DNA of 53,418 nt, counting the filler, from a bacterium (GTDB lineage Bacteria > UBA9089 > CG2-30-40-21 > SBAY01), in the NCBI GenBank assembly GCA_040757115.1. It is 3 parts of 3 records of this genome, joined end to end, with 100 filler letters (N's around TTAATTAATTAA, not from the genome) between each part and the next. Parts side by side here need not be neighbours in the genome. Positions count along the whole stretch, not along the records: positions 18,124 to 35,741 come from JBFLYA010000070.1; 2 more parts are not named here. One strand, given 5' to 3'. The position numbers and the translations under genes were made by a program. Of the stretch, positions 16,830 through 37,756 are shown one piece after another. A model generated the notes under the pieces. That model was not told the origin of the DNA, did not search any database, and worked only from the letters and a program-made list of their open reading frames with translations. How positions within the stretch are numbered: the first letter of the stretch is position 1; every line of letters starts with the position of its first letter.

Positions 16830-16946
16830 ATGAATCAAAAAGAACTAAGATTTTTAGTCGATGTTGGTGTTGGAAAGAAAGTAGAAAATTGGCTTTTAAG
16901 AAGTGGTTATAACATAAAAGATGTAAGAGATATAAATCCAGGGTAA
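16830..16946 (+). pseudogene. DUF5615 PIN-like toxin, truncated
   Basis: MNQKELRFLVDVGVGKKVENWLLRSGYNI... is cut at the MITE end at 16943; typical partner of DUF433. Confidence 0.75.
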
Positions 16947-17031
16947 CTATTCACCACGAAGAACACGAAGGACACGAAGAAAATTAGATGGTCTCTGATG
17001 CGTCTCTGTGTCTGTGCGGTGAAATAGTTAC
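16943..17031. mobile_element. IS66-type MITE (GTAACTATTCAC subfamily)
   Basis: GTAACTATTCACC / GGTGAAATAGTTAC ends; the left part matches the reverse complement of 37591-37634. Confidence 0.7.
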
Positions 17032-18023: not shown

Positions 18024-18123
18024 NNNNNNNNNNNNNNNNNNNNNNNNNNNNNNNNNNNNNNNNNNNNTTAATTAATTAANNNNNNNNNNNNNNNNNNNNN
18101 NNNNNNNNNNNNNNNNNNNNNNN
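18024..18123. other. Artificial contig-joining linker
   Basis: N-run + TTAATTAATTAA (stops in all six frames) + N-run, 100 nt in total. Confidence 0.97.
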
Positions 18124-21100: not shown

Positions 21101-24100
21101 ATCCTATTCCTAATGGTAGTTTTGAAAGTTGGGATGGAAAATCACCTATAGATTGGACAAGCAATGGATTTATTCCATCAGATGAAGCCCCTGAAGGTTT
21201 AAGAGATGCTTACGAAGGTGTCAGGAGTGCTTGTAGTGTTCTTTCATTTGGTAATATTATTCCTACTCTATTAATAGGCCTTATTTGTGAAATTCGAGAT
21301 GATTCAAATAATTTGCTTACAACGGTCTATTATCGTGAGGATGACTTAACAGATAATTGGAGAGAGTTTACAATAAATTTAAACCAATTTAAAGGCAAAA
21401 GGGGTAGAATTATCTTTTATGGACTTAACAACAATACCCTTACTTCTGATCTTTTCGACTTAGACGGTAATCTTAAGTTTTGGGGCAAAAAGTTTCGTGG
21501 CAAAATAGAAAACAAAAACTATCTTGCTGTTTTTGTTGATTGCTGTGAAATTACAGGTTCTACTCAACCATATAGTAATAATATGAAGACTAAACATATG
21601 TTAAGTCAAATATATAAGAAAGCAATTTATGATAATAATGCCCTGGTAGATTTATCTATAACTTCCTGGAGTGATAATTTTGATAGTGGACAGATATATC
21701 CCAAAACAAGCTACAAATGGTTGGATAAGAATAAAGATGGTCAATTTCTTACTCAATATCAGGAGCTTGACGATAACCCTGAACTTATCTGTACCTCAAG
21801 ATTCCTAAAATACGATGCTTACGGTAACTTACTCAAAGAAGTAGATACCAATAATGGCACTACTACATATTTCTATGGTGATAATTCCAAACCTTATAAA
21901 GAACCTGAAGCTGACGGTACATACAATGATATTAATGGCGGTGGTTACTTCGCACATGCCTATCTTACCGCAGTTCAAAATGCCTTAGGACATACTGCTA
22001 CTACTTTCTACAACCACGATACGACTATTGGAACTGTCACAGATGCTAATGGTGTTTCTACCATTTATCTCTATGATAATTTTGGCAGATTGAAAAAGGA
22101 AGTAAAACCAGGTGATACTATTGAGTCGCCTACGGTAGAGTATGATTATTACTATGCCCTCACCAAAGGTTTGCTTGGCTATGTCAAGCATGAGAAGCCT
22201 ACTCCTTATGAATCCTCTCCTCCCTTTCCACTTTCTCCTTCTCCTCCACAAGAGGAATCACAGAACGCTAATCTGAATATGATAACTATCTGGCAAAAAC
22301 TCGAAGGGACTAAAACTATCCAGGTTAGAAAACATTATGATGGTTTAGGAAGATTACTTCGCACTGAAGCTGAAAATACTAATAATAGTTCTATTGAATC
22401 TTATTCCCAAAAATGGGAAAAGGACTGGAGTAGTTGTCAGCTAAGTAATATCACTACTGAAAATGAAAATTTAGTCTTAGCAAAGTTCACCGGAGGATAT
22501 AATTATCTCTCGGTTTATGCGGAGACTCGACATGGAAGTAGCTATGAGTATAACCTTTCTCTATCAGATTCCAGTTATAAAATGGACAAATGGTGGAGGA
22601 CAAATCTTCAACAACATCGCAGTTATGATAATGGAACAGCTATAGATTATGTTAATAATGTGCTTCGAATAAGGTTTCGTTGTGATGGTAGTAAGTGGAC
22701 TCATAAGGCTTATTATGGTGCTACATATCATGTTGAAGGTAACAAGTATTACAATCAAGGCACTGTCATCTCTCAGCCTATATACTGTGGAGAGGTAGGC
22801 TCCTGGGGTAAGTTTGAGACAGAGGTAGAGGGGCATATTTTCTGGAGGCTTCCCCAAGGTATGTGTATAATGCCGCCTTTGGGAGGTTGGGGACCATCAA
22901 TAACCTTTTATACCCAAAGTAGTGATAATGGGATAGATTGGGAAGACTGGCAACAGGTAGCCGATGGAGATGATGGAATTAAGTCTTCCGTTAAGCGATA
23001 TATTCGTTGGAAGGCTTCTTTTCTTGAAAGTGAAGGGAAAACTGCTGTTTTAAAAAATGTTATTATAAACTGGAATATAAAAGTAGATAATGACATCATT
23101 AGCGATATTGAATACAATAAATTGGGTTTAAAAGAAAAAGTATTTAAACCCTATATCGAGAAAGAAGGGAGAGGAGGATATACCAACTACATCTATGAGT
23201 CAAACCCATTAGCCCGTATCTCTCAGGTGATTTATCCAGATAATAGCACGGTGACAACTTCATATAGTAACGACGGTCAGAATCGCATAGTTACTGTGAA
23301 GGATGAAAATAACCAGTGGACGCAAACTAAATTCGATAAATTAGGGAATATGATTGAGAAACAAACTGACTCTATTGATGGTATTACCTTCAATAACTCT
23401 ACTACCTATGAATACGACATACTGGGCAATCTTCTTAAAGTATCTGACCCTAAAGGAAATACAACTGAATTTAGGTATGATACATTAGGCCAACTTATCA
23501 AAAAGAACCATCCTGATACGGGCATAACCGAATATCGTTACGATAATAATGGCAATCTGCAGTTTAAACGAGATGCATTGCATACCCAAGAAGGTTTATG
23601 GGTAGAATATCGTTATGACCTCCTCAATAGACTTACCCAAAAAGGTGTCCTTAACTACTCTGGAGATAATCCCTATGAGGCACAAAACTTTGAGTCAAAG
23701 GTAGATTACCTCTATGACGGTAAGCATTCTTATGCACCTCAAGGGGATAACTATCCCATCGGTAACCTTACCCGAATGATAGATGGGGTAGGGACAACGA
23801 CCTATTACTATGATGTTAGAGCCAGATTGGTCAGACAGGAACAGTTCCTTAGTGGTGCTAACTATGTTACCAGATATTCATATGATTCTGGAGATAATAT
23901 CATATCCATCACCGACCCGGCGGGTAAAGTAACTAATTACTCTTATAACCACCTCAATCAACTTACTTCACTCAATATTAACGACATCGGTTCTGTTACA
24001 TATACCTATACCCCAGAATCTGCGGTAGATAATATTAACTTTGCTAATGGCATCACCACTAAATACTCATATTATCCGCGTGGTTGGATAAAGATAATTG

Positions 24101-26877
24101 ATACCCAAAAAGCCAGTAACCTTATCTTTCAACGATTATTTACTTATGACCCATCTGGTAATCTCAAACAGGAATATTCAGACGCTACCGGGACGACAGC
24201 ATTTGCCAATTATACCTATGATAACCTGAATAGACTTACGGCTATAGAGTATACACCCGTAGATTATAAAGATATAACCTATGGATATGATAAAGCAGGA
24301 AATCGACTTAGCTCACAGGTTCAATCTGAGCCAGTCCGTAACTATATCTATACCTCTAATCGCCTTAAATCAGATGGGGTTTATAGTTATGAGTATTATC
24401 CAAATGGTAATCTGAAGTCTAAATCAGGTCAAGGAGAGGTTATTACTTATTACTATGATTATGAGAATAATCTGATTATGATTGGTAAAAATGGATTTTT
24501 GGAAGAGCGGTATGTATATGATGGGGATGGAAGACGGGTAGAGAAGATAAAAGGCGAGGATGTTACTATATACCATTATGACCTTTCAGATAGGGTATTA
24601 TGTGAGATGAAGGGAAAGACAGAGGTTAAACAAACAGTTTCTTTAAAATATAATATTTCTAAGACCGATTATCAATGGATAGAAACTACACAGGCTACCG
24701 GTATAACCGGAGATGACCAGACGATATTGTTTAATCTACCATTTAAGTTCAAGTTTTATGGCTATGAGTATGATAAGGTCTATGTCTGTAGTAATGGTTT
24801 TTTAAGTTTTACCTCAAATTCAAGGAGATATAGGGCAGATAACATCCCTAATTCAAGTGACCCAAATGCCTTAGTCGCACCATTCTGGCGGGATTTAGAC
24901 CCAAGAAAAGGAGGCAGCATTACTTACATAAGTAATAATGAGAGACTTGTCGTTAGCTGGGATAATGTCTCTCTTTATTCACCACGAGGTAATTACCAGA
25001 CATTTCAGGTTATACTTAATAAAGATGGCACGATTACATTTCAGTATAAAGACTTGCAAGGAGTGGACGAGAGAGTTGTAGTTGGGATAGAAAATCAAGC
25101 AGGGAGTGAAGGAGAGGCGTATGATTGGAATTCACTTGAAAATGGTCTGGCACTAAAGATTCAAGCACTAACAGGCAAAGAGGCTATTCCAAAAGAAGAG
25201 GTTAAATATGAGATGGCGGAGATTAACTATGACTGGATAGAAACTGATACACCATCCGGGATTATCTATGATGATCAGAACGAACCTTTTAACTTACCAT
25301 TTACCTTTAGTTACTATGGCAAGGATTACGATAAGGTAAATGTATGCAGTAATGGTTTCTTGAGTTTTACATCAAGAAGCACGGCTTATTGGTCATACTG
25401 GCTAAACATTCCTGACAATCAGGACCCAAATGCCATGATAGCACCATTTTTTAGAGACCTGAATCCAGGAGTTGGTGGTAAGATTACATATAAGGATTTA
25501 GGTGATAAGTGGGTAATGAGTTGGGAAGATATACCGTTGTACTGGCCACGGGATAAAAAAGAGACATTTCAGGTAATACTGAATGTAGACGGTTCGATTA
25601 TATTTCAGTATAAAGACCTACAACATGTAGATTCTTATGTAAAAGCAGGGATAGAAGATGAGCGAGGAAAGGAAGGAATAGGAATTAGTCAGACATCACT
25701 TGCCAATGGCAAGGCTTATGAGATAGTGCGGGTAGTCCAGAAGTTAGAATCACCACCTGCAGAGAAGGTAACTATTACCAGTAAGACCTCGTATGTCTAT
25801 GGTAATGGGCAGTTAGTGGCGAAGCTACAGGAAGAACCAATTAACTCTGCTCCCAAGATTTATTACTACCATAATGACCACTTAGGTTCAGCAAGGGTGA
25901 TTACGGATAAGGACGGCAAGGTAGTCGAGCAGTATTTCTATTATCCCTTTGGTGGTGGCGGACCTGCGGGCGGACCGACATTTACTGGCAAGGAGCTGGA
26001 TGACAGCGGCCTATTCTACTTCGGCGCCAGATACTACGACCCGGCATTGGGGAGGTTTATCTCACCGGATCCAATACAGGTGCCAGGAGAGAATATCTAT
26101 GTCTATTGTGCCAACAATCCATTGAAGTATGTAGACCCAAATGGGGAATGGTTCTGGGAAGTTGTACATTTCTTATGGAATGTTTACAGAGCTTATACAA
26201 TTGGTAGGTCGATTTACAATGCATATCAATACGGTGGCTGGGAATATGCATTAATGAGTGCTGGTAGTAGCTGGATGTTTAATCAATTCAGTGCGGGGAT
26301 AAGTGCAGGAATAGATTTTGGTGATTGGGGAGGAGCATTAGGAGATATACTTGAGTTAAGTGTAGAAAGGGCGATATACGGCGGAGTAGGAGCAGCGATG
26401 TATGGTGGAGATTTCTGGGAAGGGGCAAAAGCAGGCGCAATTAGTGGTGCTAAATTCGGTGCGATAGGATACCTCGTTGGTAATCCTGCTGACCCAACTG
26501 ATTCATGCTATGGAGTTAATTCCTTTGTAGGAGGAGTAATAGGAAAAGAAGTAATAAAAAGAGCTCCGAGAGCATGGAATCTACTAAAAAATGTGATAAA
26601 TAAGATTAAGGGGAAATTTGGGAAGGGGGAAGCAAAGTGGCAATTTGGGAAGGATAAGTCTTTAACTAAATGGCAAAATCAAATGAGAACCAGAGGTTGG
26701 ACTGAGAAACAAATTACTGAAGCAATAGAAAGAGGAATTCGTGTGCCAGCAGTTAATAAAATAAATCCAGCAAATGGAGCAACTCGCTTTATTCATCCAG
26801 AAACTGGAAAATCAGTCGTTATTGATAATGTAACTAAAGAAATTATACATATTGGAGGGAAAGGTTTTGTCTATTAA
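18139..26877 (+). CDS. Giant RHS/YD-repeat polymorphic toxin with C-terminal colicin E5-like RNase
   Basis: Signal-peptide-like segment; SpvB/TcB-like start (GRGGL.YPI.LSY..G...SWVGLGW); YD repeats; two nidogen-like domains; RHS core (YYHNDHLGS...GARYYDP..GRF...DPNG); tip KWQNQM..RGWT...ATRF.HP.TG.SVVID. Start taken at the ATG after AGGAGG (the ORF track starts at 18130). Confidence 0.92.
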   Translation: MLKQNKSCKYKRERDYERKEVLSGGFLCFLSRLIVLIACFIFALSDKAYSDTYESSQNSPISAIAPLSFGSGPLPQASDFQTRIQGNGANLYTGDMNLPIPLFTVPGRGGLNYPINLSYQAGIKVDQGASWVGLGWDLIPEAITRNVIGYPDDYLKSEAELKISEKKFIKNIDGFLYTTDTTSYVIENDPNVYVAYDNNFYGTPRGTQLKSYSFSLQEPASIKINATCRHQYPTNYYWYELTIIFDGEKVLYYDAYLGPETHYYWKDFTVNVDYVAPGSHTVEWWMYARKEGDSNGAEMKDAKIEAVKHVCDTATPDVFSLSGKRLIMTGNPNNRKFHLQKTQGRTSSELQIDDAIKIEYGTDSATGVINFFIVTAVDGTKYIYNYPVYIKNQNSNSITKEGKNTQLGTTIYYKSKITTTTFNKPYPYAWLLTAILSPDYIDVNNNHLPDLEDSGNWIRFNYVKDATDYRFKYPYSGDYTDAPFGGNMAIESLRELFHLESIETPTHIAYFDVATDRQDVREYNGARHPVRLKEVRLYHRNTFDLNNPDAVIQSTYFDYDYSLCQGTPDSASGKLTLQNITQYGQGGKAKGEALPPTAFTYHPDNPNWDKYKWDCWGYYYENGSEGNHNLEGKSDGLKPWAWSVSKVILPTGGSIEWEYESDDYGIEGESKVKYGGGVRIRTVTTDDGLGNKFSTRYLYKTNDVDWSNSNSSGFASVEPPPFSTSTPSLYTLESPQEQSYVGYKKVTAIPGYESHTPTKTSHGYIVREFTGWQEKTVLYDGPSWKIENDFQWRCIKTLNIKLDHKAKLKISCYGIQTNGDYAYQVKIIVDGNEVYSQYVGGRTYNDVGRRFTTKEIEVSPGAHKIEFWGEADKYVAYLSNFSIFWDYYQDIEYKRGILKTTKFYDSLNNLTKSVEYSYKFDEQVKWSNDKENLTSGWAKLDKVETTIDGITTTTEYEYHPANGLISKKIERGNNEDRITQITYAFDPYPIPNGSFESWDGKSPIDWTSNGFIPSDEAPEGLRDAYEGVRSACSVLSFGNIIPTLLIGLICEIRDDSNNLLTTVYYREDDLTDNWREFTINLNQFKGKRGRIIFYGLNNNTLTSDLFDLDGNLKFWGKKFRGKIENKNYLAVFVDCCEITGSTQPYSNNMKTKHMLSQIYKKAIYDNNALVDLSITSWSDNFDSGQIYPKTSYKWLDKNKDGQFLTQYQELDDNPELICTSRFLKYDAYGNLLKEVDTNNGTTTYFYGDNSKPYKEPEADGTYNDINGGGYFAHAYLTAVQNALGHTATTFYNHDTTIGTVTDANGVSTIYLYDNFGRLKKEVKPGDTIESPTVEYDYYYALTKGLLGYVKHEKPTPYESSPPFPLSPSPPQEESQNANLNMITIWQKLEGTKTIQVRKHYDGLGRLLRTEAENTNNSSIESYSQKWEKDWSSCQLSNITTENENLVLAKFTGGYNYLSVYAETRHGSSYEYNLSLSDSSYKMDKWWRTNLQQHRSYDNGTAIDYVNNVLRIRFRCDGSKWTHKAYYGATYHVEGNKYYNQGTVISQPIYCGEVGSWGKFETEVEGHIFWRLPQGMCIMPPLGGWGPSITFYTQSSDNGIDWEDWQQVADGDDGIKSSVKRYIRWKASFLESEGKTAVLKNVIINWNIKVDNDIISDIEYNKLGLKEKVFKPYIEKEGRGGYTNYIYESNPLARISQVIYPDNSTVTTSYSNDGQNRIVTVKDENNQWTQTKFDKLGNMIEKQTDSIDGITFNNSTTYEYDILGNLLKVSDPKGNTTEFRYDTLGQLIKKNHPDTGITEYRYDNNGNLQFKRDALHTQEGLWVEYRYDLLNRLTQKGVLNYSGDNPYEAQNFESKVDYLYDGKHSYAPQGDNYPIGNLTRMIDGVGTTTYYYDVRARLVRQEQFLSGANYVTRYSYDSGDNIISITDPAGKVTNYSYNHLNQLTSLNINDIGSVTYTYTPESAVDNINFANGITTKYSYYPRGWIKIIDTQKASNLIFQRLFTYDPSGNLKQEYSDATGTTAFANYTYDNLNRLTAIEYTPVDYKDITYGYDKAGNRLSSQVQSEPVRNYIYTSNRLKSDGVYSYEYYPNGNLKSKSGQGEVITYYYDYENNLIMIGKNGFLEERYVYDGDGRRVEKIKGEDVTIYHYDLSDRVLCEMKGKTEVKQTVSLKYNISKTDYQWIETTQATGITGDDQTILFNLPFKFKFYGYEYDKVYVCSNGFLSFTSNSRRYRADNIPNSSDPNALVAPFWRDLDPRKGGSITYISNNERLVVSWDNVSLYSPRGNYQTFQVILNKDGTITFQYKDLQGVDERVVVGIENQAGSEGEAYDWNSLENGLALKIQALTGKEAIPKEEVKYEMAEINYDWIETDTPSGIIYDDQNEPFNLPFTFSYYGKDYDKVNVCSNGFLSFTSRSTAYWSYWLNIPDNQDPNAMIAPFFRDLNPGVGGKITYKDLGDKWVMSWEDIPLYWPRDKKETFQVILNVDGSIIFQYKDLQHVDSYVKAGIEDERGKEGIGISQTSLANGKAYEIVRVVQKLESPPAEKVTITSKTSYVYGNGQLVAKLQEEPINSAPKIYYYHNDHLGSARVITDKDGKVVEQYFYYPFGGGGPAGGPTFTGKELDDSGLFYFGARYYDPALGRFISPDPIQVPGENIYVYCANNPLKYVDPNGEWFWEVVHFLWNVYRAYTIGRSIYNAYQYGGWEYALMSAGSSWMFNQFSAGISAGIDFGDWGGALGDILELSVERAIYGGVGAAMYGGDFWEGAKAGAISGAKFGAIGYLVGNPADPTDSCYGVNSFVGGVIGKEVIKRAPRAWNLLKNVINKIKGKFGKGEAKWQFGKDKSLTKWQNQMRTRGWTEKQITEAIERGIRVPAVNKINPANGATRFIHPETGKSVVIDNVTKEIIHIGGKGFVY

Positions 26878-27109
26878 GAATGAAAAAAAAGAAGAGATAT
26901 ATATCCCATTACTAAATGAGGGAGTTGATGTTTTTAGACCTACTTTGGGTATTGAAATAGAGAAAAATATTTTTAAAGTGCTTCCAATAGAAAAATATGA
27001 TCCAGAAGATGAAAGATGGAAATTTTTGCCTGGAAGTATTGTTAGATGTAAAAAAGAGATTCGGGAAGGAAAAGAGATATTAATTGCAACAGAACTCCAG
27101 AACTCCTGA
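26852..27109 (+). CDS. Probable immunity protein for the colicin E5-like toxin
   Basis: Small ORF overlapping the toxin stop; IYIPLLNEG..V.RPT...YDPEDE.W.F.PGS.VRC; exact start uncertain. Confidence 0.7.
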   Translation: MEGKVLSIKNEKKEEIYIPLLNEGVDVFRPTLGIEIEKNIFKVLPIEKYDPEDERWKFLPGSIVRCKKEIREGKEILIATELQNS

Positions 27110-27121
27110 CAGGAGGATGAA

Positions 27122-27458
27122 GATCGCATCTTGAATTGTGAATTGACATGTTACATAACTTATTGTTAATAAAAGGAATAGAGTGGTGAAAATTGGGGTT
27201 AGGCTTCGAGCAGAATTAACTAAATTGCTCTTTGAAAACTTAAGACACGGATTACACTGATTTATGGTCGGGGATAGGGTCGGGGTCGGGGATAGGGTCG
27301 GGGTCGGGGATAGGGTCGCATCTTGAATTGGGGTCGGGGATAGGGTCGGTCGGGGATAGGGTCGCATCTTGAATTGTGAATTGTTAATAAAGGAATAGTA
27401 AAATTTACTTTTTCTTTCCTAAATTGCTCTTTGAAAATTAAGCATCCATGATAATAGA
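27122..27458 (+). repeat. Cassette leader copies plus GGGGATAGGGTC tandem repeats
   Basis: TCGCATCTTGAATTG occurs three times; two TGCTCTTTGAAAA copies (27226, 27425); 12-18 bp G-rich tandem repeats at 27266-27362. Confidence 0.9.
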
Positions 27459-28923
27459 GATAGCACCATTTTTTAGAGACCTGAATCCAAGAGCTGGTGG
27501 TAAGATTACTTATAAGGATTTAGGTGATAAGTGGGTAATGAGTTGGGAAGATATACCGTTGTACTGGCCACGGGATAAAAAAGAGACATTTCAGGTAATA
27601 CTGAATGTAGACGGTTCGATTATATTTCAGTATAAAGACTTGCAACGCGTAGATTCCTGGGTAAAAGCAGGGATAGAAGATGAGCGAGGAAAAGAGGGAA
27701 TAGGAATTAGTCAGACATCACTTGCCAATGGCAAGGCATACGAGATAGTGCGGGTAGTCCAGAAGTTAGAATCACCACCGGCAGAGAAGGTAACTATCAC
27801 CAGTAAGACCTCGTATGTCTATGGAAATGGGCAGTTAGTAGCAAAGTTACAGGAAGAGCCAATTGGCTCTTCACCGAAGGTGTATTACTACCATAATGAC
27901 CACTTAGGCTCGGCGCGAGCAATTACTGATAAAGATGGGAAGGTAGTCGAGCAGTATTTCTATTATCCCTTTGGTGGTGGCGGACCTGTCGGTGGACCGA
28001 CATTTACTGGCAAGGAGCTGGATGATAGCGGCCTCTTCTACTTCGGCGCCAGATACTATGACCCGGCATTGGGTAGATTCATTACCCCAGACCCAATTCA
28101 AGCCGCAGGCCAAAATCTGTATGTCTATTGTTACAACAATCCGCTTGGCTATGTTGATCCGAATGGTGAGTGGGCTTTTATTCCATTCCTGATTAGTGTA
28201 TTTAAAGTCTACTCAATTGCCAGTACCATTTATAATATCTATCAAGGATATAAATATGGAGGTTTTGAAGGAGCCATACAGGCAGGAATGGTAAGTTTTG
28301 CCAGTTGGATGCTAACCAGTAGTATTGACTTTGGCAATGAACTCTGGCAAGATATGTTGGAGGGAGCATTATCAGGGGCGATAAGTGGGGGCATAAGTGC
28401 CTTAGTCTACGGTGGAGATTTTGGTAAGGCTATGTATCAAGGCGCTGGCTGGGGTGCTGCTGGCGGTGCAATTGGTCATTGGGCTGAAAAAGTAATGGAA
28501 TCTTATGAAAATGCACCAAAAGATGAGGCAACATTGTATGCGTGGGATAAACCAGAACCAGGGAAGGGGAGGTGGCCACATGCTTCAGTAGAATTTGAAG
28601 GTGGATATGAAAGTTTATATCCTGGTAAGAAAATGAGTTTAGCTGATGATAAAGAAATTCACAAGGATAAGCCAGAAACATTATATAAGCCTCACAATAA
28701 GGATATGATAGTAAAAGGCCTTGATAAGAATAAAATTAGTAAAATAGATAAAGCGTGGACTCCATACAGCTATAATTGCGCAGATCATGCTCAAGCAGTA
28801 TTACAGGCTGGGGGCGCACAATTCTTGCCGAAATTGTTCATAAATACTCCTAATAGCCTTTACTATAGAGTCCAAATAAGAAGAGCATGGCGAACATTTT
28901 TATACGGAAAACAAGAATGGTAA
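27448..28923 (+). CDS. RHS replacement cassette 1: partial nidogen-like domain + RHS core + papain/NlpC-P60-like toxin tip
   Basis: Near-identical to the main gene from 25437 to the DPNG junction; the tip carries WPHAS and YNCAD (His before Cys). Confidence 0.85.
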   Translation: MIIEIAPFFRDLNPRAGGKITYKDLGDKWVMSWEDIPLYWPRDKKETFQVILNVDGSIIFQYKDLQRVDSWVKAGIEDERGKEGIGISQTSLANGKAYEIVRVVQKLESPPAEKVTITSKTSYVYGNGQLVAKLQEEPIGSSPKVYYYHNDHLGSARAITDKDGKVVEQYFYYPFGGGGPVGGPTFTGKELDDSGLFYFGARYYDPALGRFITPDPIQAAGQNLYVYCYNNPLGYVDPNGEWAFIPFLISVFKVYSIASTIYNIYQGYKYGGFEGAIQAGMVSFASWMLTSSIDFGNELWQDMLEGALSGAISGGISALVYGGDFGKAMYQGAGWGAAGGAIGHWAEKVMESYENAPKDEATLYAWDKPEPGKGRWPHASVEFEGGYESLYPGKKMSLADDKEIHKDKPETLYKPHNKDMIVKGLDKNKISKIDKAWTPYSYNCADHAQAVLQAGGAQFLPKLFINTPNSLYYRVQIRRAWRTFLYGKQEW

Positions 28924-28950
28924 TAAAGTTCTATTAGTCAGAGGAATAAT

Positions 28951-29136
28951 ATGCAAAAACATTTTTTTAACATCTTTTGGATTTTTTTAATTTTTACTAT
29001 TGGTTGTACACATAGTTATAAATCAAACTCTGATCTTAATAAGGTTTATCTACTTGAAGAGATAGGACTTGGAACTTACTTTTATGGTGATTCATATAAC
29101 CAAGGGCGAGAATGGGGGTCGCATCTTGAATTGTGA
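28951..29136 (+). pseudogene. Lipoprotein immunity candidate, truncated
   Basis: Lipobox-like FTIGC after a hydrophobic stretch; the ORF runs into the conserved cassette leader at ~29114. Confidence 0.55.
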
Positions 29137-29236
29137 ATTGACATTTTACATAACTTATTGTTAATAAAGGAATAGTAAAATTTACTTTTTCTTCTCTTAA
29201 TTGCTCTTTGAAAATTAAACATCTCTGATAATAGAA
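29114..29236 (+). repeat. Cassette leader copy
   Basis: GGGGTCGCATCTTGAATTGTGAATTGACA...TGCTCTTTGAAAATTAAACATC.CTGATAATAGA. Confidence 0.9.
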
Positions 29237-30700
29237 ATTGCACCATTTTTTAGAGACCTGAATCCATCTAAAGGCGGTAAGATTACATATAAGGATTTAG
29301 GTGATAAGTGGGTAATGAGTTGGGAAGATGTACCGTTGTACTGGCCAAGGGATAAAAAAGAGACATTTCAGGTAATACTGAATGTAGACGGTTCGATTAT
29401 ATTTCAGTATAAAGACCTACAACATGTAGATTCTTATGTAAAAGCAGGGATAGAAGATGAGCGAGGAAAAGAGGGAATAGGAATTAGTCAGACATCACTT
29501 GCCAATGGCAAGGCATACGAGATAGTGCGGGTAGTCCAGAAGTTAGAATCGCCACCGGCAGAGAAGGTAACTATCACCAGTAAGACCTCGTATGCCTATG
29601 GCAATGGGCAATTAGTGGCGAAGCTACAGGAAGAACCAATTAACTCTGCTCCCAAGATTTATTACTACCATAATGACCACTTAGGCTCAGCAAGGGTAAT
29701 TAGTGACAAGGATGGCAAGGTAGTCGAGCAATATTTCTATTATCCCTTTGGTGGTGGTGGACCGGTTGGTGGACCTACTTTTACTGGCAAGGAGCTGGAT
29801 GACAGCGGCCTGTTCTACTTCGGCGCCAGATACTATGACCCTGCATTAGGGAGATTTATAACTCCCGATTCAGTTCAAATCCCAGCAGATAATCTCTATG
29901 TCTACTGTGCTAATAATCCGCTCACAAATATAGACCCGAATGGAGAATTCTGGCAATTTATATGGGCAGCATGGAAGTTTTATACTGCGGTTAAAACCCT
30001 TTATAATGTCTATGAGGCATATCAATACGGTGGATGGGATGCAGCTTTAATGAGTGCTGGTAGTAGCTGGATGTTTAATCAATTCAGTGCTGGGATAAGT
30101 GCAGGGATAAATTTTGGAGACTGGGGTGGTCCATTAGGAGATATATTTGAATTAGGAGTAGAAGGGGCGATAACTGGTGGCATAAGCTCATTAATGTATG
30201 GTGGTGATTTCTGGGAAGGGGCAAGAACAGGAGCTATTTCTGGAGTTGGCTCTGGAATAGCAAATGCTTTATTACCTATTTTAGGTGCAGTACCTACTGC
30301 AGAGAAAGAGACAATTATTAGCGATCCAGTTGATCCAACAGATTTCTTGGGAGCTGGAAAGATAGTTGTTGGAGGAATAAAAACAGTTCTTGTTGGTGGG
30401 GGTAAAGTAATAGGCAAAGGTATAGGTAAAATCGGTGGAAGAGTTATAGGAAAAGGAGCGGCAAAAGAAGGTGTAACTAAAGCTCAAAGTCCAGTTTGGA
30501 AAGAATTTAAAACTTTTAGGGGAGGAATTAAAACCTCTGGTAAAGGAAGGAATAAAGAATACTATAAGTGGGACCACACTCATAACCATATTGAGGTTTA
30601 TGATAGGTACGGTAATCATAAAGGTGTAATGGATCCAATTACTGGTGTGATAGATAGATCAAAACAAGTCCCGGGAAGAACGATTAAAGATGAATTATAA
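29237..30700 (+). CDS. RHS replacement cassette 2 with colicin E3/pyocin S6-like cytotoxic RNase tip
   Basis: Homology to the main gene starts at the same IAPFFRDL codon; tip SPVWK...YYKWDHTHNHIEVYD..GNHKG.MDP.TG; first in-frame ATG at 29315. Confidence 0.85.
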   Translation: MAPFFRDLNPSKGGKITYKDLGDKWVMSWEDVPLYWPRDKKETFQVILNVDGSIIFQYKDLQHVDSYVKAGIEDERGKEGIGISQTSLANGKAYEIVRVVQKLESPPAEKVTITSKTSYAYGNGQLVAKLQEEPINSAPKIYYYHNDHLGSARVISDKDGKVVEQYFYYPFGGGGPVGGPTFTGKELDDSGLFYFGARYYDPALGRFITPDSVQIPADNLYVYCANNPLTNIDPNGEFWQFIWAAWKFYTAVKTLYNVYEAYQYGGWDAALMSAGSSWMFNQFSAGISAGINFGDWGGPLGDIFELGVEGAITGGISSLMYGGDFWEGARTGAISGVGSGIANALLPILGAVPTAEKETIISDPVDPTDFLGAGKIVVGGIKTVLVGGGKVIGKGIGKIGGRVIGKGAAKEGVTKAQSPVWKEFKTFRGGIKTSGKGRNKEYYKWDHTHNHIEVYDRYGNHKGVMDPITGVIDRSKQVPGRTIKDEL

Positions 30701-30739
30701 AGTGATTGAATGGTATAATAAAGTAAAAAGGGGGAAAGA

Positions 30740-30976
30740 ATGTTTGAACATTGTTGTAAGATGATGAATTTTCATATTAATCATGAAGACAAGATAATTC
30801 AGTATTGGTCTAAATTCAGAGAATATGTAATCAAAATTCCTGAGGTACTTGGAGGAGGAGGTTTAGTAATGAATTATTGTCCGTGGTGTGGGAAAAAGCT
30901 GCCGAAGTCACTACGGGATAAGATATTTGAGGAAAATCAAAAAAAGGGATTAGATCTCTTTGGTTGTCCTGAATAA
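30740..30976 (+). CDS. Probable immunity protein (DUF6980-like, Cys-rich)
   Basis: HCC.MM...I.Y..KFREY.I...YCPWCG.KLP.SLRD, directly after the RNase tip. Confidence 0.7.
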   Translation: MFEHCCKMMNFHINHEDKIIQYWSKFREYVIKIPEVLGGGGLVMNYCPWCGKKLPKSLRDKIFEENQKKGLDLFGCPE

Positions 30977-31012
30977 ATAGAATGGTAATTAGGGTCAGCC
31001 GTGAATGTGGAA

Positions 31013-31152
31013 GGCGTAGAATAGGGCGTAGAATAGGGTCGGGCGTAGAATAGGGTCGCATCTTGAATTGTGAATTGTTAATAAAGGAATAGTAAAATTT
31101 ACTTTTTTTTCCTTAATTGTTCTTTGAAAATTAAGCATCCCTGATAATAGAG
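31013..31152 (+). repeat. GGCGTAGAATAG tandem repeats plus cassette leader copy
   Basis: Three GGCGTAGAATAGG units abut GGGTCGCATCTTGAATTGTGAATTG; TGTTCTTTGAAAA at 31118. Confidence 0.9.
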
Positions 31153-32661
31153 ATAGCACCATTTTTTAGAGACCTGAATCCAGGAGATGGTGGTAAGATT
31201 ACATATAAGGATTTAGGTGATAAATGGGTAATGAGTTGGGAAGATGTACCGTTGTACTGGCCAAGTGATAAAAAAGAGACATTTCAGGTAATACTGAATG
31301 TAGACGGTTCGATTATATTTCAGTATAAAGACCTACAACATGTAGATTCTTATGTAAAAGCAGGGATAGAAGATGAGCGAGGAAAAGAGGGAATAGGAAT
31401 TAGTCAGACATCACTTGCCAATGGCAAGGCATACGAGATAGTGCGGGTAGTCCAGAAGTTAGAATCGCCACCGGTACAGAAAGTAACAATCACCAGCAAG
31501 ACTTCATACATCCATGCCAATGGGCAATTGGTAGCAAAACTGCATGAAGAACCTCTCGGCGCATCTGCTAAAATTTACTACTACCACAACGACCACTTAG
31601 GTTCACCACGGGCTATTACGGATAAAGATGGTAAGGTGGTAGAGAATTATTTTTACTACCCATTTGGCTCTGGAGGTCCTGTTGGCGGACCGACATTTAC
31701 TGGCAAGGAGCTGGATGATAGCGGCCTGTTCTACTTTGGCGCCAGATACTATGACCCGGCACTGGGGAGATTCATTACCCCAGACCCGATTCAAGCCGCA
31801 GGCCAAAATCTGTATGTCTATTGCTACAACAATCCGCTTGGCTATGTTGATCCGAATGGTGAGTGGGCTTTTATTCCATTCCTGATTAGTGCCTTTAAAG
31901 TCTATTCAGTTGCAAGTGCAATCTATAATGTCTACCAGGGATATAAATATGGAGGTTTTGAAGGGGCATTACAGGCAGGAATGGTAAGTGTAGCCTGTTG
32001 GGCATTTACCAGTGGGATTGACTTTGGAAATGAACTCTGGCAAGATATGTTGGAGGGAGCATTATCAGGGGCGATAAGTGGTGGCATAAGTGCCGCGGTA
32101 TATGGTGGAGATTTTGGCAAGGCTATGTACCAGGGTGCAGCCTGGGGTGCTGCTGGCGGTGCAATTGGTCATTGGGCTGAGAAAATGTGGGGAAAATACC
32201 AAAATGCACCAAAAGATGAGGCAACATTGTATGCGTGGGAATCTGAAGGTGATTGGCCTCATGCCTCAGTAGATATTGAAGGGAAACAAGGACAATACCC
32301 AGGTTATCAAAGTGCTTATCCATTCCCTGAAGGTAAAAATCGTCCTTTTGATAATAGTGAGAAAGGAGTTGTGTTTAAACTTTATAAAGAGGATGTAAAT
32401 AGCCATCTTCCAAACCCGAAAGAAATAGTAATAAAAGGTGTAAATAAATCAGCAATGCACAGCTTTTTCCCAAAGGGAGGACCTGTATGGAAAGCATATA
32501 CCTACAATTGTGCTGATTACGCCCAGGCAGTGTTACAAGCAGGAGGAGCACGATTCTTACCAAAACTATTTATAAATTCACCAAGAAGTCTGTATTATAG
32601 AGCCCAAATAAGAAGAGCATGGCGAACATTTTTATACGGTCCACAAGAATGGCAAAAATGA
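31153..32661 (+). CDS. RHS replacement cassette 3 with papain/NlpC-P60-like toxin tip
   Basis: Same start junction; tip WPHAS...YNCADYAQAVLQAGG; first in-frame ATG at 31231. Confidence 0.85.
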   Translation: MAPFFRDLNPGDGGKITYKDLGDKWVMSWEDVPLYWPSDKKETFQVILNVDGSIIFQYKDLQHVDSYVKAGIEDERGKEGIGISQTSLANGKAYEIVRVVQKLESPPVQKVTITSKTSYIHANGQLVAKLHEEPLGASAKIYYYHNDHLGSPRAITDKDGKVVENYFYYPFGSGGPVGGPTFTGKELDDSGLFYFGARYYDPALGRFITPDPIQAAGQNLYVYCYNNPLGYVDPNGEWAFIPFLISAFKVYSVASAIYNVYQGYKYGGFEGALQAGMVSVACWAFTSGIDFGNELWQDMLEGALSGAISGGISAAVYGGDFGKAMYQGAAWGAAGGAIGHWAEKMWGKYQNAPKDEATLYAWESEGDWPHASVDIEGKQGQYPGYQSAYPFPEGKNRPFDNSEKGVVFKLYKEDVNSHLPNPKEIVIKGVNKSAMHSFFPKGGPVWKAYTYNCADYAQAVLQAGGARFLPKLFINSPRSLYYRAQIRRAWRTFLYGPQEWQK

Positions 32662-32727
32662 AAGTAAGCCCCGTGTGTTTTACATACAAAGGGTTTACTT
32701 TTTGGAGGTAAGAGAAAAGTTAAGGTA

Positions 32728-33825
32728 ATGAAGAAAGAGATGTTAATACCTGTATTAATATTAACACTAATCATATCAATACTTATTCCAAAACAAACTT
32801 ATGGAGAAGATGTTAAAGTGTATAATAAAATTCTTCTTATCACTTCTCAAGGAAAGTTATTAATAGATTTAATAACTGGTAAGATAGATACTTCTACAGA
32901 GCAAGAATCTCTTTTTCTCATAGATCCTTCTTGGGACATTTTGAAGGAAAGAGGTATGAATATAGATAGTTTAAGAAAGGAAGGGTGTCTTTTTCACTCC
33001 AATCTTTCCTATCATATTTTAAAAGATATAAATTATATAACCCATAACTATCCTGATGATAATAAAATAGTTGTTAGATTATTAGATAAAAATAATAATA
33101 TGTTATATAAAAAAGAGCTATTTACCAATTTATCAAAAGATGTTAACCATGTAATATATCTTTCTTTTGATAGCAATTTGCTTTTTTTATTACGGGAGGA
33201 TTGGAAACAGCGTAAAAGTTGTATAGATATTTTTCTATTAAAAGAGGGAAAGAAAATAGATACTATTTATAGAAATTTTCATATTTATTATCGTTATAAA
33301 CCAAGGTTTTCAAAAAATGGTAAACTTTGGATATATTACGATCCTAAAGAAAAAAAGGTGTTATTGTATGACTTAGAAAAAAAAGAAGCTTGTCATTTGC
33401 CAAATTGTAACGGGGGGATTCCGATTAATCATAATGAATCTATTATTTACAAGGAAATCTACAAAAGGCGAAATATACTTGATATACTTTACAGAGATAA
33501 GCCTTTTGAATATAAATTTTTTAAATATAATAGAATAACCAATCAAAGAGAAAATTTGAATATAGATAATGTGAAAGGATTTATAGTAGAAATGGGAATT
33601 TCTCCAGATGGAAAGTATCTTGCAATTATTCATAGAATGGAGTGGAATAGAGAATATAGAAGGAGATATTATAAGATGATTCCAAGAGTCATCATTAAGG
33701 TTTATGATTTTGAGGATAAAAAGGTTGTAGTTGACTTTGATGGTTTAGAATTTTTTGAGAATGGTTTAGGAATAGGTGATTTTCATATTAAATGGATAGA
33801 AGAAGAAAAAGATGATAGTTTATAG
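32728..33825 (+). CDS. Secreted beta-propeller-like protein, immunity candidate
   Basis: Signal peptide; FSKNGK and ISPDGKYLA WD40/TolB-like turns; very AT-rich. Confidence 0.6.
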   Translation: MKKEMLIPVLILTLIISILIPKQTYGEDVKVYNKILLITSQGKLLIDLITGKIDTSTEQESLFLIDPSWDILKERGMNIDSLRKEGCLFHSNLSYHILKDINYITHNYPDDNKIVVRLLDKNNNMLYKKELFTNLSKDVNHVIYLSFDSNLLFLLREDWKQRKSCIDIFLLKEGKKIDTIYRNFHIYYRYKPRFSKNGKLWIYYDPKEKKVLLYDLEKKEACHLPNCNGGIPINHNESIIYKEIYKRRNILDILYRDKPFEYKFFKYNRITNQRENLNIDNVKGFIVEMGISPDGKYLAIIHRMEWNREYRRRYYKMIPRVIIKVYDFEDKKVVVDFDGLEFFENGLGIGDFHIKWIEEEKDDSL

Positions 33826-33895
33826 AACTTACTTAAATTACAAGACTTATGACAAAAAGTTACTAATAAAAAGGAGAAGATGTAAAAAAGAGAAA

Positions 33896-34477
33896 ATGAA
33901 GAAGGTAATATTGTTAACATTGGTTTTGATTATATTTTTATCAACTAATAATGTATATGCAATAGAGGAAGAATTGAAATCTGGTGTAAGTTTTACTATA
34001 GGATATACTCATGTTAAAGAAATCTGGGAAAAAAAGTCTCTTCCTCCTCTCCCTCCTCCTCCTTTTTCATTTGAAGATACCTACTATCTAAAATTTAGTT
34101 CTGATAAAGGTACTTCTATCAAAATAGGATTCAAGCAATTCCTTAAATTACCTATTCCATTAATGGGAGAGGTAGAATATCTTTCTCTTCATACTATAGA
34201 GTCCTTTAATTATTTATGTTCTGTTAATTATTTATGTTCTGTTGGTATAGCCCACTTCTTGAAGAAGGGTACTGTTTATATTGGTATTGGCTATTATACT
34301 CCAGATATTGGCTCAGGTAAGATGGGTTGTCATGTGCTTATAGAAGGAAAGAAGGCTCTGACTAAAAATCTGAATCTGATTCTGGAAGGAAGATTGAGGA
34401 AAGTGGATAGTTATTCTTCCGATAATAGTAAAATTGATCTTTCTGGATATACCATTTCAATAGGGATTGGAGAGTAG
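33896..34477 (+). CDS. Small outer-membrane beta-barrel-like protein
   Basis: Signal peptide ending VYA, amphipathic beta strands, C-terminal DLSGYTISIGI. Confidence 0.55.
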   Translation: MKKVILLTLVLIIFLSTNNVYAIEEELKSGVSFTIGYTHVKEIWEKKSLPPLPPPPFSFEDTYYLKFSSDKGTSIKIGFKQFLKLPIPLMGEVEYLSLHTIESFNYLCSVNYLCSVGIAHFLKKGTVYIGIGYYTPDIGSGKMGCHVLIEGKKALTKNLNLILEGRLRKVDSYSSDNSKIDLSGYTISIGIGE

Positions 34478-34486
34478 ATTAGCGCA

Positions 34487-34614
34487 GGATGAAGGTCGCA
34501 TCTTGAATTGTGAATTGATATTTTACATAACTTATTGTTAATAAAAGGAATAGTAAAATTTAGTTTTTCTTTACTAAATTGCTCTTTGAAAATTAAACAT
34601 CCCTGATAATAGAG
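34487..34614 (+). repeat. Cassette leader copy
   Basis: AGGATGAAGGTCGCATCTTGAATTGTGAATTG...TGCTCTTTGAAAA (34580). Confidence 0.9.
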
Positions 34615-35741
34615 ATTGCACCATTTTTTAGAGACCTGAATCCATCTAAAGGCGGTAAGATTACATATAAGGATTTAAGTGATAAGTGGGTAATGAGTTG
34701 GGAAGATGTACCGTTGTACTGGCCAGGTGATAAAAAAGAGACATTTCAGGTAATACTGAATGTAGACGGTTCAATAATATTTCAGTATAAAGACTTGCAA
34801 CGCGTAGATTCCTGGGTAAAGGCAGGGATAGAAGATGAGCGAGGAAAAGAGGGAATAGGAATTAGTCAGACATCACTTGCCAATGGCAAGGCTTATGAGA
34901 TAGTGCGGGTAGTCCAGAAGTTAGAATCACCACCGGCAGAGAAGGTAACTATCACCAGTAAGACCTCGTATGCCTATGGCAATGGGCAGTTAGTGGCAAA
35001 GCTACAGGAAGAACCAATTAACTCTGCTCCCAAAATTTATTACTACCATAACGACCACTTAGGTTCAGCAAGGGTGATTACGGATAAAGATGGCAAGGTA
35101 GTTGAGCAGTATTTCTATTATCCCTTTGGTGGTGGCGGACCTGTAGGTGGGCCGACATTTACCGGCAAGGAGCTGGATGACAGCGGCCTGTTCTACTTCG
35201 GCGCTAGATACTATGACCCGGCATTGGGGAGATTCATTACCCCAGACCCGATTCAAGCCGCAGGCCAAAATCTGTATGTCTATTGCTACAACAATCCGCT
35301 TGGCTATGTTGACCGAATGGTGAGTGGGCTTTTATTCCATTCCTGATTAGTGTATTTAAAGTCTACTCAATTGCCAGTACCATTTATAATATTTATCAAG
35401 GATATGAACATGGAGGTTTTGAAGGTGCATTACAGGCAGGAATGGTAAGTTTTGCCAGTTGGATGGTAACCAGTAGTATTGACTTTGGAAATGAACTCTG
35501 GCAAGATATGTTGGAGGGAGCATTATCAGGGGCGATAAGTGGGGGCATAAGTGCAGCGGTATATGGGGGAGACTTTGGTAAGGCAATGTATCAAGGTGCT
35601 GGTTGGGGTGCTGTTGGCGGTGCAATTGGTCATTGGGCTGAAAAAGTAATGGAATCTTATGAAAATGCACCAAAAGATGAGGCAACATTGTATGCGTGGG
35701 ATAAACCAGAACCAGGGAAGGGGAGGTGGCCACATGCTTCA
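34615..35741 (+). pseudogene. RHS replacement cassette 4 (tip like cassette 1), frameshifted, cut by contig end
   Basis: 1-bp deletion at the DPNG junction (GTTGACCGAATGG versus GTTGATCCGAATGG); downstream sequence is nearly identical to cassette 1. Confidence 0.8.
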
Positions 35742-35841
35742 NNNNNNNNNNNNNNNNNNNNNNNNNNNNNNNNNNNNNNNNNNNNTTAATTAATTAANNN
35801 NNNNNNNNNNNNNNNNNNNNNNNNNNNNNNNNNNNNNNNNN
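35742..35841. other. Artificial contig-joining linker
   Basis: N-run + TTAATTAATTAA + N-run. Confidence 0.97.
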
Positions 35842-35863: not shown

Positions 35864-36084
35864 TATAGCAGTTATTAGTCAAAATTTTACTCAGGGTGGA
35901 TAAGTAAAAAATCCCAAATCCCAAGCACCAAATCCCAAATAAGCACCAAATTTCAAGTACTAAATACCAAACTATGGGGGGTAATGTTTTGAATTTTGGT
36001 CATTTGAATTTGTTTGGAATTTGGAATTTGTGATTTGGAATTTCATAGCCATATCTGGTCAAATTTCGATTAATAAGTGCTATA
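35864..36084. mobile_element. IS630/TA-type MITE
   Basis: ~27-bp imperfect TIRs TATAGCAGTTATTAGTCAAAATTT / AAATTTCGATTAATAAGTGCTATA with TA at both ends; CCAAAT/ATTTGG heptamer arms. Confidence 0.75.
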
Positions 36085-37154: not shown

Positions 37155-37756
37155 GTAACTATTCACCACGAAGAGCACGAAGGACACGAAATGGAATTTA
37201 ATGTCTTGTAATTTTCGGTAGTGTCTGACAATAACTACAATTTTTTGTAAGCGTTCAGGTGGTGTAACAAAAGGAGATGTGGAGATTAAGGAGATAGGGA
37301 GATATTATTAAAAAAATTGAAATTAGTAGAAACTAATAGAAATTTATGGAAATTTGTTGTTTCCCACAATCAATTTCTACCTATTTCTATAAATTTCAAT
37401 CTATTTCTATTATCTTATCTCCATATCGCCCTTATCTCCTTATCCCCTTTCTTACACTTTTGATATATAGCCTGAACGGTTACAATTTTTTTAACCACAA
37501 AGATCGCAAAGAGTTTCACAAAAGAGTCAAAGATTTTTGAGAGAATAAATTTTTTCCTTTATTTCTTTGTGTACTTTGTGGTTAATTTCAGAGACCATCT
37601 AATTTTCTTCGTGTTCTTCGTGGTGAATAGTTACGTGGATTCAAGCAAACCTGGCCCAAGACTTCGATGCACCGCTATAGCGAATCCAATGACTCTATTC
37701 GATAATTCATCAAATTTCACTTCGTGCTCTCCGTGCCCTTCGTGGTGAATAGTTAC
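37155..37756. mobile_element. Composite IS66-type MITE with 8-bp TSD
   Basis: TIRs GTAACTATTCAC / GTGAATAGTTAC; TSD AGAAAAAA at 37147-37154 and 37757-37764; contains nested elements. Confidence 0.85.
37247..37483. mobile_element. Nested IS66-type MITE with 8-bp TSD
   Basis: TIRs GTAAGCGTTCAG / CTGAACGGTTAC; TSD AATTTTTT on both sides. Confidence 0.88.

Follow-up and report, generated by a model that had tools for sequence, protein, structure and literature searches.

Putative transposon end repeats at the borders of an orphan Rhs toxin array in an uncultured bacterium

Behind a large rhs gene in the genome of an uncultured bacterium, toxin cassettes stand in a row, each opening at the same point of homology to that gene and each preceded by the same non-coding leader. 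Orphan Rhs arrays as such are known, the formation of their borders is not, and here each border bears what appears to be the end repeat of a transposase element; the question raised by this locus is therefore how such uniform borders came about. We analysed the 53.4-kb stretch of DNA in which the locus lies (hereafter the window), which joins three contigs of one metagenome-assembled genome (MAG) end to end. A preliminary description had proposed a dedicated mechanism that uses the opening motif of the leader as a cut or insertion site. The explanation that we favour, with a probability of roughly 0.55, is an Rhs orphan array with an inherited joint between leader and core, in which the solo end repeat of a TIRYT element would act as a hot spot of breakage.

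Array anatomy and the leader-core joint

Judged from its sequence, the locus is a classical Rhs main gene followed by an array of orphan toxin/immunity modules, with all features described here on the + strand. A 24-nt motif, GGTCGCATCTTGAATTGTGAATTG, occurs exactly at 27360, 29117, 31054 and 34494 and with one mismatch at 27122 (five matches in the window vs none in 100 shuffles). The four exact copies open the leaders of cassettes 1 to 4, which measure 100, 120, 99 and 121 nt and are mutually 93-97% identical, a 20-nt insertion setting the leaders of cassettes 2 and 4 apart from those of 1 and 3. The core-opening sequence ATWGCACCATTTTTTAGAGACC is found at 25438 within the main gene and, behind the leaders, at 27460, 29237, 31153 and 34615. 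The core common to the cassettes extends over 715 bp (1009 bp in cassette 2) at 85-90% identity to the main gene. Four cassettes with a shared leader, motif and breakpoint, and a shared core of about 700 bp, are thus as first described. The four leaders of 99-121 nt likewise stand, with starts now placed at 27360, 29117 and 31054 (34494 is kept as given). Of the two leader variants listed earlier, that at 27122 is the motif copy with one mismatch, and that near 27314 is a 17-nt partial motif inside a tandem stutter. The array does not end at four, since further leader and core copies lie on contigs C16, C125, C276, C318 and C358 of the source MAG.

This MAG (G000) comprises 462 contigs and 4.32 Mb at 36.8% G+C, and was compared with a sister species (G001) and with further genomes, among them G003 and G005; C numbers denote contigs and L numbers database loci. 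The window spans C429 (1-18023), C431 (18124-35741) and C432 (35842-53418), whose adjacency in the genome is not implied. The linkers at 18024-18123 and 35742-35841 are runs of N around TTAATTAATTAA, across which no feature should be read. Because the rhs locus fills one whole contig, C431, with 35741 as the contig end, both of its ends are assembly breaks. C16 overlaps the start of C431 by 127 nt and carries at least seven further orphans upstream; the locus also continues past cassette 4 on other contigs, and contig ends fall at 127-nt repeats. Four full-length rhs genes are present in G000.

The main rhs gene (18139..26877) has 2913 codons from the ATG at 18139, the listing of open reading frames (ORFs) giving a TTG at 18130. 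Its product consists, in order, of a signal-like N-terminus, a weak SpvB-like stretch (19.5 bits, under the cut-off of 22), RHS/YD repeats (PF05593, 120.1 bits, cut-off 22, six stretches), two NIDO domains (PF06119, 80.3 bits, four stretches), the core end and a variable C-terminal toxin. The RHS family PF03527 scores 26.9 bits in the main protein (cut-off 27.9) and 22.8-32.9 bits across the five core copies, of which two pass. The two tandem NIDO-like domains lie within 24640..25839 (PF06119 profile; an internal repeat, family D12), and the homology to the cassettes opens inside the second. The core block repeated by every cassette runs from 25402 to 26151, where it ends at the DPNGEW codons (26134-26151). 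All five copies carry the core-end motif ..YFGARYYDPALGRFI.PD...NNPL, and the main gene reads on to NNPLKYVDPNGEW. The alignment of the copies diverges directly after ..NNPLxYVDPNGEW: the main gene and cassettes 1-3 read through DPNGE and then part, and the frame of cassette 4 breaks just before it. The main tip contains a predicted Colicin E5-like tRNase domain (26665..26859; PF12106, 26 bits, cut-off 25), and a small ORF after the main gene (26852..27109; no family match) is a candidate immunity gene.

On their own the cassettes would be silent fragments, since they open within the second NIDO domain and are directly preceded by stop codons; only the leader of cassette 1 holds an in-frame ATG (27448). 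Ahead of this leader, a leader remnant without core (27122..27260) combines the mismatched motif copy (27122-27145), a second type of terminal inverted repeat (TIR), GGGGTTAGGCTTCGAGCAGAATTAAC (27195-27220), and a copy of the conserved box that ends each leader (27223-27239). It is followed by a stutter array (27266..27359) in which GGGGATAG-type units alternate with partial motif copies of 5 and 17 nt. The leader of cassette 1 (27360..27459; TIR 27360-27383, box 27422-27438) runs into a core fragment, a glycine-rich pre-toxin stretch and a predicted toxin without known family (cassette 1, 27460..28923). Behind it stands a lipoprotein gene, the likely immunity gene (28951..29104), which is cut at about codon 51 and has a full-length version on C318. 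A filler, GGCGAGAATGGG (29105-29116), and the second leader complete the stretch 29105..29236 (TIR 29117-29140, box 29199-29215). Cassette 2 (29237..30700) couples its core fragment to a predicted colicin-E3-like 'Cytotoxic' domain (30515-30685; 30.5 bits, cut-off 22), with a DUF6980 ORF (30740..30976; 50.9 bits, cut-off 27) as its candidate immunity gene.

Between this ORF and the third leader (31054..31152; TIR 31054-31077, box 31115-31131) lie a remnant of another TIR type, TAGGGTCAGCCGTGAATGTGGAA, and a GGCGTAGAATAG stutter with a 5-nt partial motif (30990..31053). Cassette 3 (31153..32661) is a paralogue of cassette 1 (88% over 1263 nt) and also ends in a predicted toxin without known family. 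Two ORFs of 365 and 221 codons with signal-like N-termini follow it (32728..34477; no family match) and are candidate immunity or accessory genes. After GCGCAGGATGAA and the fourth leader (together 34482..34614; TIR 34494-34517, box 34577-34593), cassette 4 (34615..35741) is again a paralogue of cassette 1 (93.6% over 1209 nt), with a 1-nt gap near 35313 that breaks its frame; it is cut by the contig end, and its last 127 nt are identical to 28461-28587. Cassettes 1, 3 and 4 thus remain paralogous well past the core, at 88-94% identity over about 1.2 kb. A profile search gave no family match for tips 1 and 3, which are mutually related, or for four downstream ORFs, and the 61-codon lipoprotein ORF has no similarity to the 365-codon ORF after cassette 3. 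Tip 1 was absent from the 12 relatives searched, and an Rfam search of the whole window returned no family.

The point at which the homology begins differs from the one first described. It had been set at about 25438; the true 5' limit of main-gene homology is at about 25402, 36 nt further 5'. The last ~20 nt of the leader (AAACATCCCTGATAATAGAG) align with AAACATTCCTGACAATCAGGA of the main gene, and the leader end is decayed coding sequence (LNIPDNQDPNAM) with a 12-nt deletion. Since the copies on C358 and at the G001 loci L085 and L087 keep 12-13 further nt of the main gene (CCAAATGCTATG), the ancestral joint would have been box/CTAAACAT at about 25402, later blurred by this deletion.

The same leader and the same joint occur in the G001 cassettes L086 and L088. 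Between G000 and G001 the leader is 90-94% identical and the adjoining core only 71-76%, with ordinary genes at 91-98%, which argues that the joint was inherited and that the adjoining cores were overwritten, presumably through conversion by the rhs genes resident in each genome. Conservation of the leader by selection was rejected as an explanation, since ordinary genes are 91-98% identical too and the cores were replaced. A uniform core limit needs no special cut, because the circle/homologous-recombination model, in the published descriptions of it that we compared (PMC3150448, PMC3967940, PMC2935791), hands one spacer/core joint to every later integration. In G000, moreover, all nine rhs-linked repeats are of one variant (G/G, with G at positions 5 and 24; the non-rhs copies are A/A in five cases, G/A in one and G/G in one), so the leader would have propagated as a unit rather than being re-seeded from an active element.

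The core fragments have evolved under purifying selection (dN/dS 0.09-0.135 and dS 0.29-0.64 over ten pairs in G000). Compared with the main gene in 60-nt windows, they reach 83-100% identity over the first ~300 nt and fall to 65% further on, a mosaic that appears typical of recombination among expressed alleles. These patterns suggest that tips are exchanged by homologous recombination in the shared core in this organism. Such exchange had been proposed earlier and fits both the selection on the cores and the occurrence of tip 2, at 84% identity, on a 933-codon open frame running off the start of a contig of the sister species (G001:C302).

A portable leader and a transposase-linked motif

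The leader appears to be a discrete portable unit of ~100-120 nt. Its 3' end is formed by a conserved 17-nt box, AATTGCTCTTTGAAAAT, with 21 matches in G000 vs one in the reversed control; at no more than one mismatch, 14 matches remain, 13 of them immediately 5' of rhs fragments. Copies of the box outside the window occur on C16, C125, C276, C318, C337, C358 and C439 and involve several rhs families, and the box is absent from the upstream regions of the full-length rhs genes of G000. Stop codons are abundant in all frames of the box region. At least four rhs positions adjoin the box, namely LNIPDN.. (this locus), NFTFTGKEYDE, (N)YYDxFGRR and LKKLRFSFDTVDGW, with a fifth, unplaced joint at 27240. 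The repeat types upstream of the box differ between rhs joints, and one leader body stands before two different breakpoints, on C318 in G000 and at L090:1673 in G001.

The 24-nt motif at the other end of the leader has a wider distribution. G000 holds 20 matches at up to four mismatches, 12 in rhs cassettes and eight elsewhere, some of the latter forming perfect inverted pairs (C30 and C146) or preceding integron attC sites. The suspicion that the motif is just a dispersed repeat is thus half right. A scan of one genome per species found the exact motif at 50 loci, labelled mostly as Desulfobacterales-type MAGs with a few Thermodesulfovibrionia, Sedimentisphaerales, Alphaproteobacteria and Nanoarchaeota. 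A gene or fragment resembling one protein, P0001, lies at 14 of these loci (11 places once three overlapping locus pairs are merged), and in two intact elements, L016 and L048, inverted motifs ~1010 bp apart (2501+ and 3534-) enclose a single ORF. P0001, the 331-residue product of such an ORF between inverted motifs, matches PF01797 Y1_Tnp (43 bits, cut-off 23) and carries HYH and Y..RNP motifs. It scores 64.5 bits against NCBIfam REP_Tyr_transpos (NF047646), under the cut-off of 80, and its C-terminus gives a weak NCBIfam DnaA match (residues 272-328, 15.8 bits, E = 0.0055). In the sister species, a motif lies ~40 nt 5' of a P0001-like gene (L098).

The published accounts that we compared describe TIRYT elements, or TIRtrons, as Y1/HUH transposase genes between long inverted repeats that start with GGGGWSAS, with a C-terminal helix-turn-helix (HTH)/DnaA_C-like extension in the protein and with moderately abundant families of solo and dimer repeats (Di Nocera 2013; Quentin 2018, subclass 2.1). 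As GGGGTCAC.. fits this published start and flanks a PF01797 gene, we assign the motif to the TIRtrons and read it as the predicted terminal inverted repeat of a TIRYT/TIRtron Y1 (HUH) transposase element. Most copies across genomes read ..GG/GGTCAC; those in the window read GGGTCGC or AGGTCGC, one to two positions off GGGGWSAS. To our knowledge, activity of the TIRYT transposase family has never been shown. The substrate of HUH/RAYT type that had been suspected is therefore retained as to the Y1 transposase gene flanked by inverted motifs in other genomes, and not as to the RAYT family, whose cut-off was missed. A looser signature, GGTC[AG]NANCTNGA, has 69 matches in G000 vs six in the reversed control; it takes in a number of related repeat types, and the type found at 27195-27220 also borders a TIRYT gene in G005.

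Two details of the elements themselves were observed in passing. At L048 (2503-2524) the TIRYT gene takes its final codons and its stop from its own terminal repeat (..NSQFKM*), and at L097 in G005 the gene end is likewise encoded in its own repeat (..VNSAFEV*), so that one repeat is partly coding.

Breakage at the repeat and rival explanations

Many copies of the repeat are preceded by a stutter, in which 6-12 nt of flank plus the first bases of the repeat stand in tandem (in the window, 27266-27359 and 31013-31053). A 6-nt flank plus GGTC is repeated within 60 nt upstream in 15 of 66 motif copies, in none on the mirror side and in 19 of 4992 random places. Among the partial copies upstream of the motif, 57 of 68 stop after nt 5, and within 120-nt flanks GGTCR occurs 68 times in 8360 nt upstream and seven times in 8163 nt downstream (9.4 expected). 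The pattern is present in MAGs apparently from different assemblies. These footprints point to a specific cut position, GGTCR^C: the preferred break probably lies after GGTCR, as an HUH nick would leave it, and not across the whole of GGGTCGCATCTTGAAT, which had been suggested as a cut or insertion site.

Leaving aside the GGTCR pieces, the stutter flank units of G000 (27266-27359 and 31013-31053; C125, C276, C223, C87 and C308) contain hardly any C, and many of them finish with TAG. On the third contig of the window, an inverted repeat at 35900-36060 (..ccaaatcccaaat.. / ..atttggaatttgg..) is flanked by imperfect tandem units in a stutter-like style, and a sequence resembling it is present on C16, upstream of the main rhs gene.

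At the same edge of the repeat, genes and cassettes end. C318 is identical to 28978-29104 of the window over 127 nt, after which its lipoprotein gene runs on to ~175 codons; in the window the gene stops after ..GDSYNQ, at the 12-nt GGCGAGAATGGG and the motif. Of other G000 cassettes, only 58 nt (C125) and 247 nt (C276) of core remain before stutter and repeat set in. A tip is cut at the repeat on C16, a leader remnant is cut at 27260, and an rhs frame of 1448 codons in G003 terminates within the repeat. In G000 the repeat marks the exact end of about 12 different left-hand partners, and several of these joints bear a stutter of their own. A precise end on one side with arbitrary partners on the other looks like adjacent deletions at a transposon end, and such deletions at the 5' edge of the repeat would account for the abrupt ends of unique DNA at the motif, an earlier observation that C318 bears out for the lipoprotein gene cut mid-gene. 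We further infer that the transposase may have caused the joints. Of the dedicated mechanism first proposed, the recurrent joint at the 5' edge of the motif, next to truncated genes, is thus upheld; the single breakpoint is better read as inherited, given its presence in G001.

C318 also carries, on the reverse strand at ~540-640, a hairpin of another repeat type (GGGGTTAGACCGTGAATGTAGAA ... TTCTACATTCAACATTCACGGTCTGACCCC). It separates the full-length lipoprotein gene from an ORF of ~330 codons whose repeated W.PDG motifs look beta-propeller-like by eye, and truncated copies of this repeat type precede cassette 3 (30990-31012).

Taken together, we propose the following course of events. A full-length rhs gene would be followed by silent orphans, each a 3' core fragment with a toxin tip and an immunity gene, and orphan tips would replace the expressed tip by homologous recombination in the ~715-bp shared core. 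One ancestral leader-core joint, copied by duplication, unequal crossing-over, circle integration and gene conversion, would give all cassettes the same 5' limit. The leader would begin with the solo TIRYT terminal inverted repeat and end with the 17-nt box. The 5' edge of the repeat would be a hot spot of breakage and rejoining, with the nick probably after GGTCR, and would yield both the stutters and adjacent deletions that remove upstream immunity genes, earlier cassettes and leader remnants.

Several points weigh against this proposal. Replication slippage at a protein-bound or structured site could yield the same stutter footprints, and the left joints are partly dependent, as cassette 4, the 27122 remnant and three G003 copies share CAGGAnnATGAAG before the motif. 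The P0001-like copy in G001 is frameshifted and without its right-hand repeat. In the G000 assembly no intact TIRYT gene was found, none beside a motif, P0001 being matched best by a fragment of 107 codons (53% identity) and by a stop-containing frame of 213 codons. No motif lies within 2.5 kb of any G000 Y1 gene, even with five mismatches to the 18-nt core. The linked Y1 transposase suggested at the outset is accordingly found beside the motif in other genomes, and not intact beside it in G000. A sigma-70 promoter/terminator scan of 26800-35741 gave 30 promoter-like sites vs 30.2 expected, none in the leaders, and four leaders and two reverse strands, folded as DNA, form no stable structure (z -0.73 to +0.33). 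All genomes are fragmented short-read MAGs; the order of the cassettes depends on the assembler's path, because a stretch of at least 644 nt that is identical between cassettes 1 and 4 was collapsed; and the check at the level of sequencing consists of contigs of one run.

That check, of depth and joints, used Logan contigs of one run labelled groundwater metagenome; runs X2 and X3 gave no match to the stretch. Three joints between unique DNA and motif are reproduced without difference (same data, another assembler), and one Logan contig matches 30343-31079 without difference, stutter included. Depth is 227-370 in unique parts (main gene 307, cassette 2 316, cassette 3 227-316) and 549, about twice as high, in the collapsed part. 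Five odd joints at 27357/27358 include ones present on C125 (28017 to 27357 and 31210 to 27357). The simplest reading of the contigs is a linear path from the main gene through cassettes 1, 2, 3 and 4 to C318, and the assembly graph also permits a closed path from cassette 2 through 3, 4 and the shared stretch back to 2.

Such a closed path would suit a more active role of the transposase, which we consider unlikely as an account of the locus. A TIRYT enzyme would here cut single-stranded DNA at GGTCR^C in two direct repeats, release a circle of leader, core, tip and immunity gene, and re-insert it at another repeat; the array would be built and reshuffled by the Y1 transposase in the manner of an integron, with homologous recombination only bringing a tip into the main gene. 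Leader and box would then have served as a portable handle for the capture of rhs 3' ends at several breakpoints. Such a system agrees with the joining of the leader unit to at least four rhs breakpoints, with the ends of the partial copies after nt 5 and with the form of the joints, which all read as anything followed by the repeat, as strand exchange repeat by repeat would give. At C125:3248, moreover, stutter plus GGGGTCA runs directly into the rhs core at TATTAC. However, the intact cognate transposase was not found in G000, and a single clonal variant among the rhs-linked repeats, together with a joint common to G001, fits inheritance rather than repeated mobilisation. Rhs sequence stands near the motif at only four of the 50 genome loci, all carrying G003 sequences, and nowhere outside genome family f1. 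In metagenome contigs, four loci with the exact motif included none with an rhs or P0001-like gene, and the degenerate leader-joint pattern had no match. The Logan contigs contain no circle or alternative joint beyond those explained by other contigs, and the unique parts are at single-copy depth.

A further reading, in which a single ancestral orphan was duplicated in tandem and its copies then diverged, with the repeat as a passive passenger in the duplicated spacer and the abrupt ends as ordinary deletions, seems to us slightly less probable again. The paralogy of cassettes 1, 3 and 4 over ~1.2 kb, the stretch of at least 644 nt shared by 1 and 4, the 93-97% identity of the leaders and the single variant among rhs-linked repeats are what duplication would leave. 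The cores are nevertheless not recent silent copies of one another, given dS values of 0.29-0.64 at a dN/dS of ~0.1, and cassette 2 and the main gene bear different tips. Nor would duplication lead us to expect ~12 left-hand joints that end exactly at the repeat, several with their own stutter, a stutter specific to this edge in unrelated genomes, or one leader joined to different rhs breakpoints. That the array is an artefact of metagenome assembly or binning, with repeats of several strains or loci threaded into one contig, is very improbable: the 462 contigs, the contig ends at 127-nt repeats, the many motif copies at contig ends and the collapsed 644-nt stretch would allow it, but the similar depth of the main gene and cassettes 2 and 3, the doubled depth of the collapsed part, the joints reproduced in Logan contigs and the recurrence of the architecture in G001 and G003 speak against it.

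Elsewhere in the window, a ~250-nt repeat of MITE-like look (~37240-37495 and ~52300-52543) recurs at more than 40 places in G001 at 91-98% identity, and dozens of G001 contigs carry a 36-56-nt repeat that in the window lies just upstream of lgt (~16943-16998; 82-100% identity). At 14538-16415 an ordinary type II restriction-modification pair is formed by an EcoRV-type restriction endonuclease (359 bits) and, next to it, a D12-class adenine methyltransferase (62.8 bits).

Comparison with known systems

The repeat family shares with TIRtrons its GGGGTCAC.. copies around a PF01797 gene and its hairpin dimers (C30, C146, L011 and L046). Unlike them, the present locus has solo repeats arranged as direct repeats at the borders of toxin cassettes, and stutters that end after nt 5, a feature not mentioned in the TIRtron accounts that we compared. 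REP/RAYT systems and REPINs, as far as the descriptions compared go, are short repeats tied to a domesticated Y1 transposase, with doublets that form hairpins, and the link between short repeats and a Y1 transposase is common to both. Membership of this group was rejected: there is no GTAG-tagged GC-rich palindrome, the motif is not self-complementary, the NF047646 score is 64.5 vs 80, and copies number tens, not hundreds.

Integrons consist of promoter-less units in one orientation, split by a conserved site that recombines as single-stranded DNA. An integron array was rejected for this locus, as the window has no attC-like match vs 79 elsewhere in G000, the leaders do not fold (z -0.73 to +0.33) and the IntI gene is on another contig; no tyrosine recombinase is encoded on the rhs contig. 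G000 does possess a large chromosomal integron, distributed over C22, C36, C223, C322, C405, C456, C461 and others. Its 79 attC-like repeats (control 0) lie 0.3-3 kb apart in one orientation per contig, and C322 encodes the IntI (368.6 bits, cut-off 265), of which G000 also has several broken copies. The integron cassettes include toxin-antitoxin genes, and a TIRYT repeat plus ~90 nt often precedes attC. An HUH-run, integron-like cassette system devoted to polymorphic toxins, with solo TIRYT ends as single-strand recombination sites, is an unlikely reading. One-ended rolling-circle capture by IS91/ISCR elements likewise leaves a precise end beside captured genes of variable extent; it relies on a Y2 Rep-like HUH enzyme and ori/ter ends, and no Y2 Rep-like HUH gene turned up here, where no search was aimed at one.

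A literature search found no paper tying RAYT-type transposases to polymorphic toxins. Should the enzyme make the joints described here, HUH transposases would gain a part in diversifying the toxins that bacteria use against one another. Otherwise the locus would still illustrate cleanly how silent toxin cassettes of an uncultured bacterium evolve in concert.

The closest relatives of the locus are the orphan rhs-CT/rhsI modules of Salmonella, Dickeya and Yersinia. The accounts compared describe them as promoter-less fragments that keep the core before a DPxGL-type motif, with their own tip and a small immunity ORF; in Salmonella the shared core is 522 bp at 95% identity, recombination fuses an orphan tip to the main gene, and orphan tips occur on full-length genes in other bacteria (PMC3150448, PMC3967940, PMC2935791). 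The present array resembles them in its shared core of 715 bp and in the occurrence of tip 2 on a long open frame in G001. It differs in the NIDO domains within the shell and in the leader with a predicted transposon end repeat and box before each cassette, which those accounts, as compared, do not describe; the published models also leave open the origin of the circular intermediate and of the core limit (PMC3150448, PMC3967940, PMC2935791). This is, in sum, a known kind of locus with an unreported border element.

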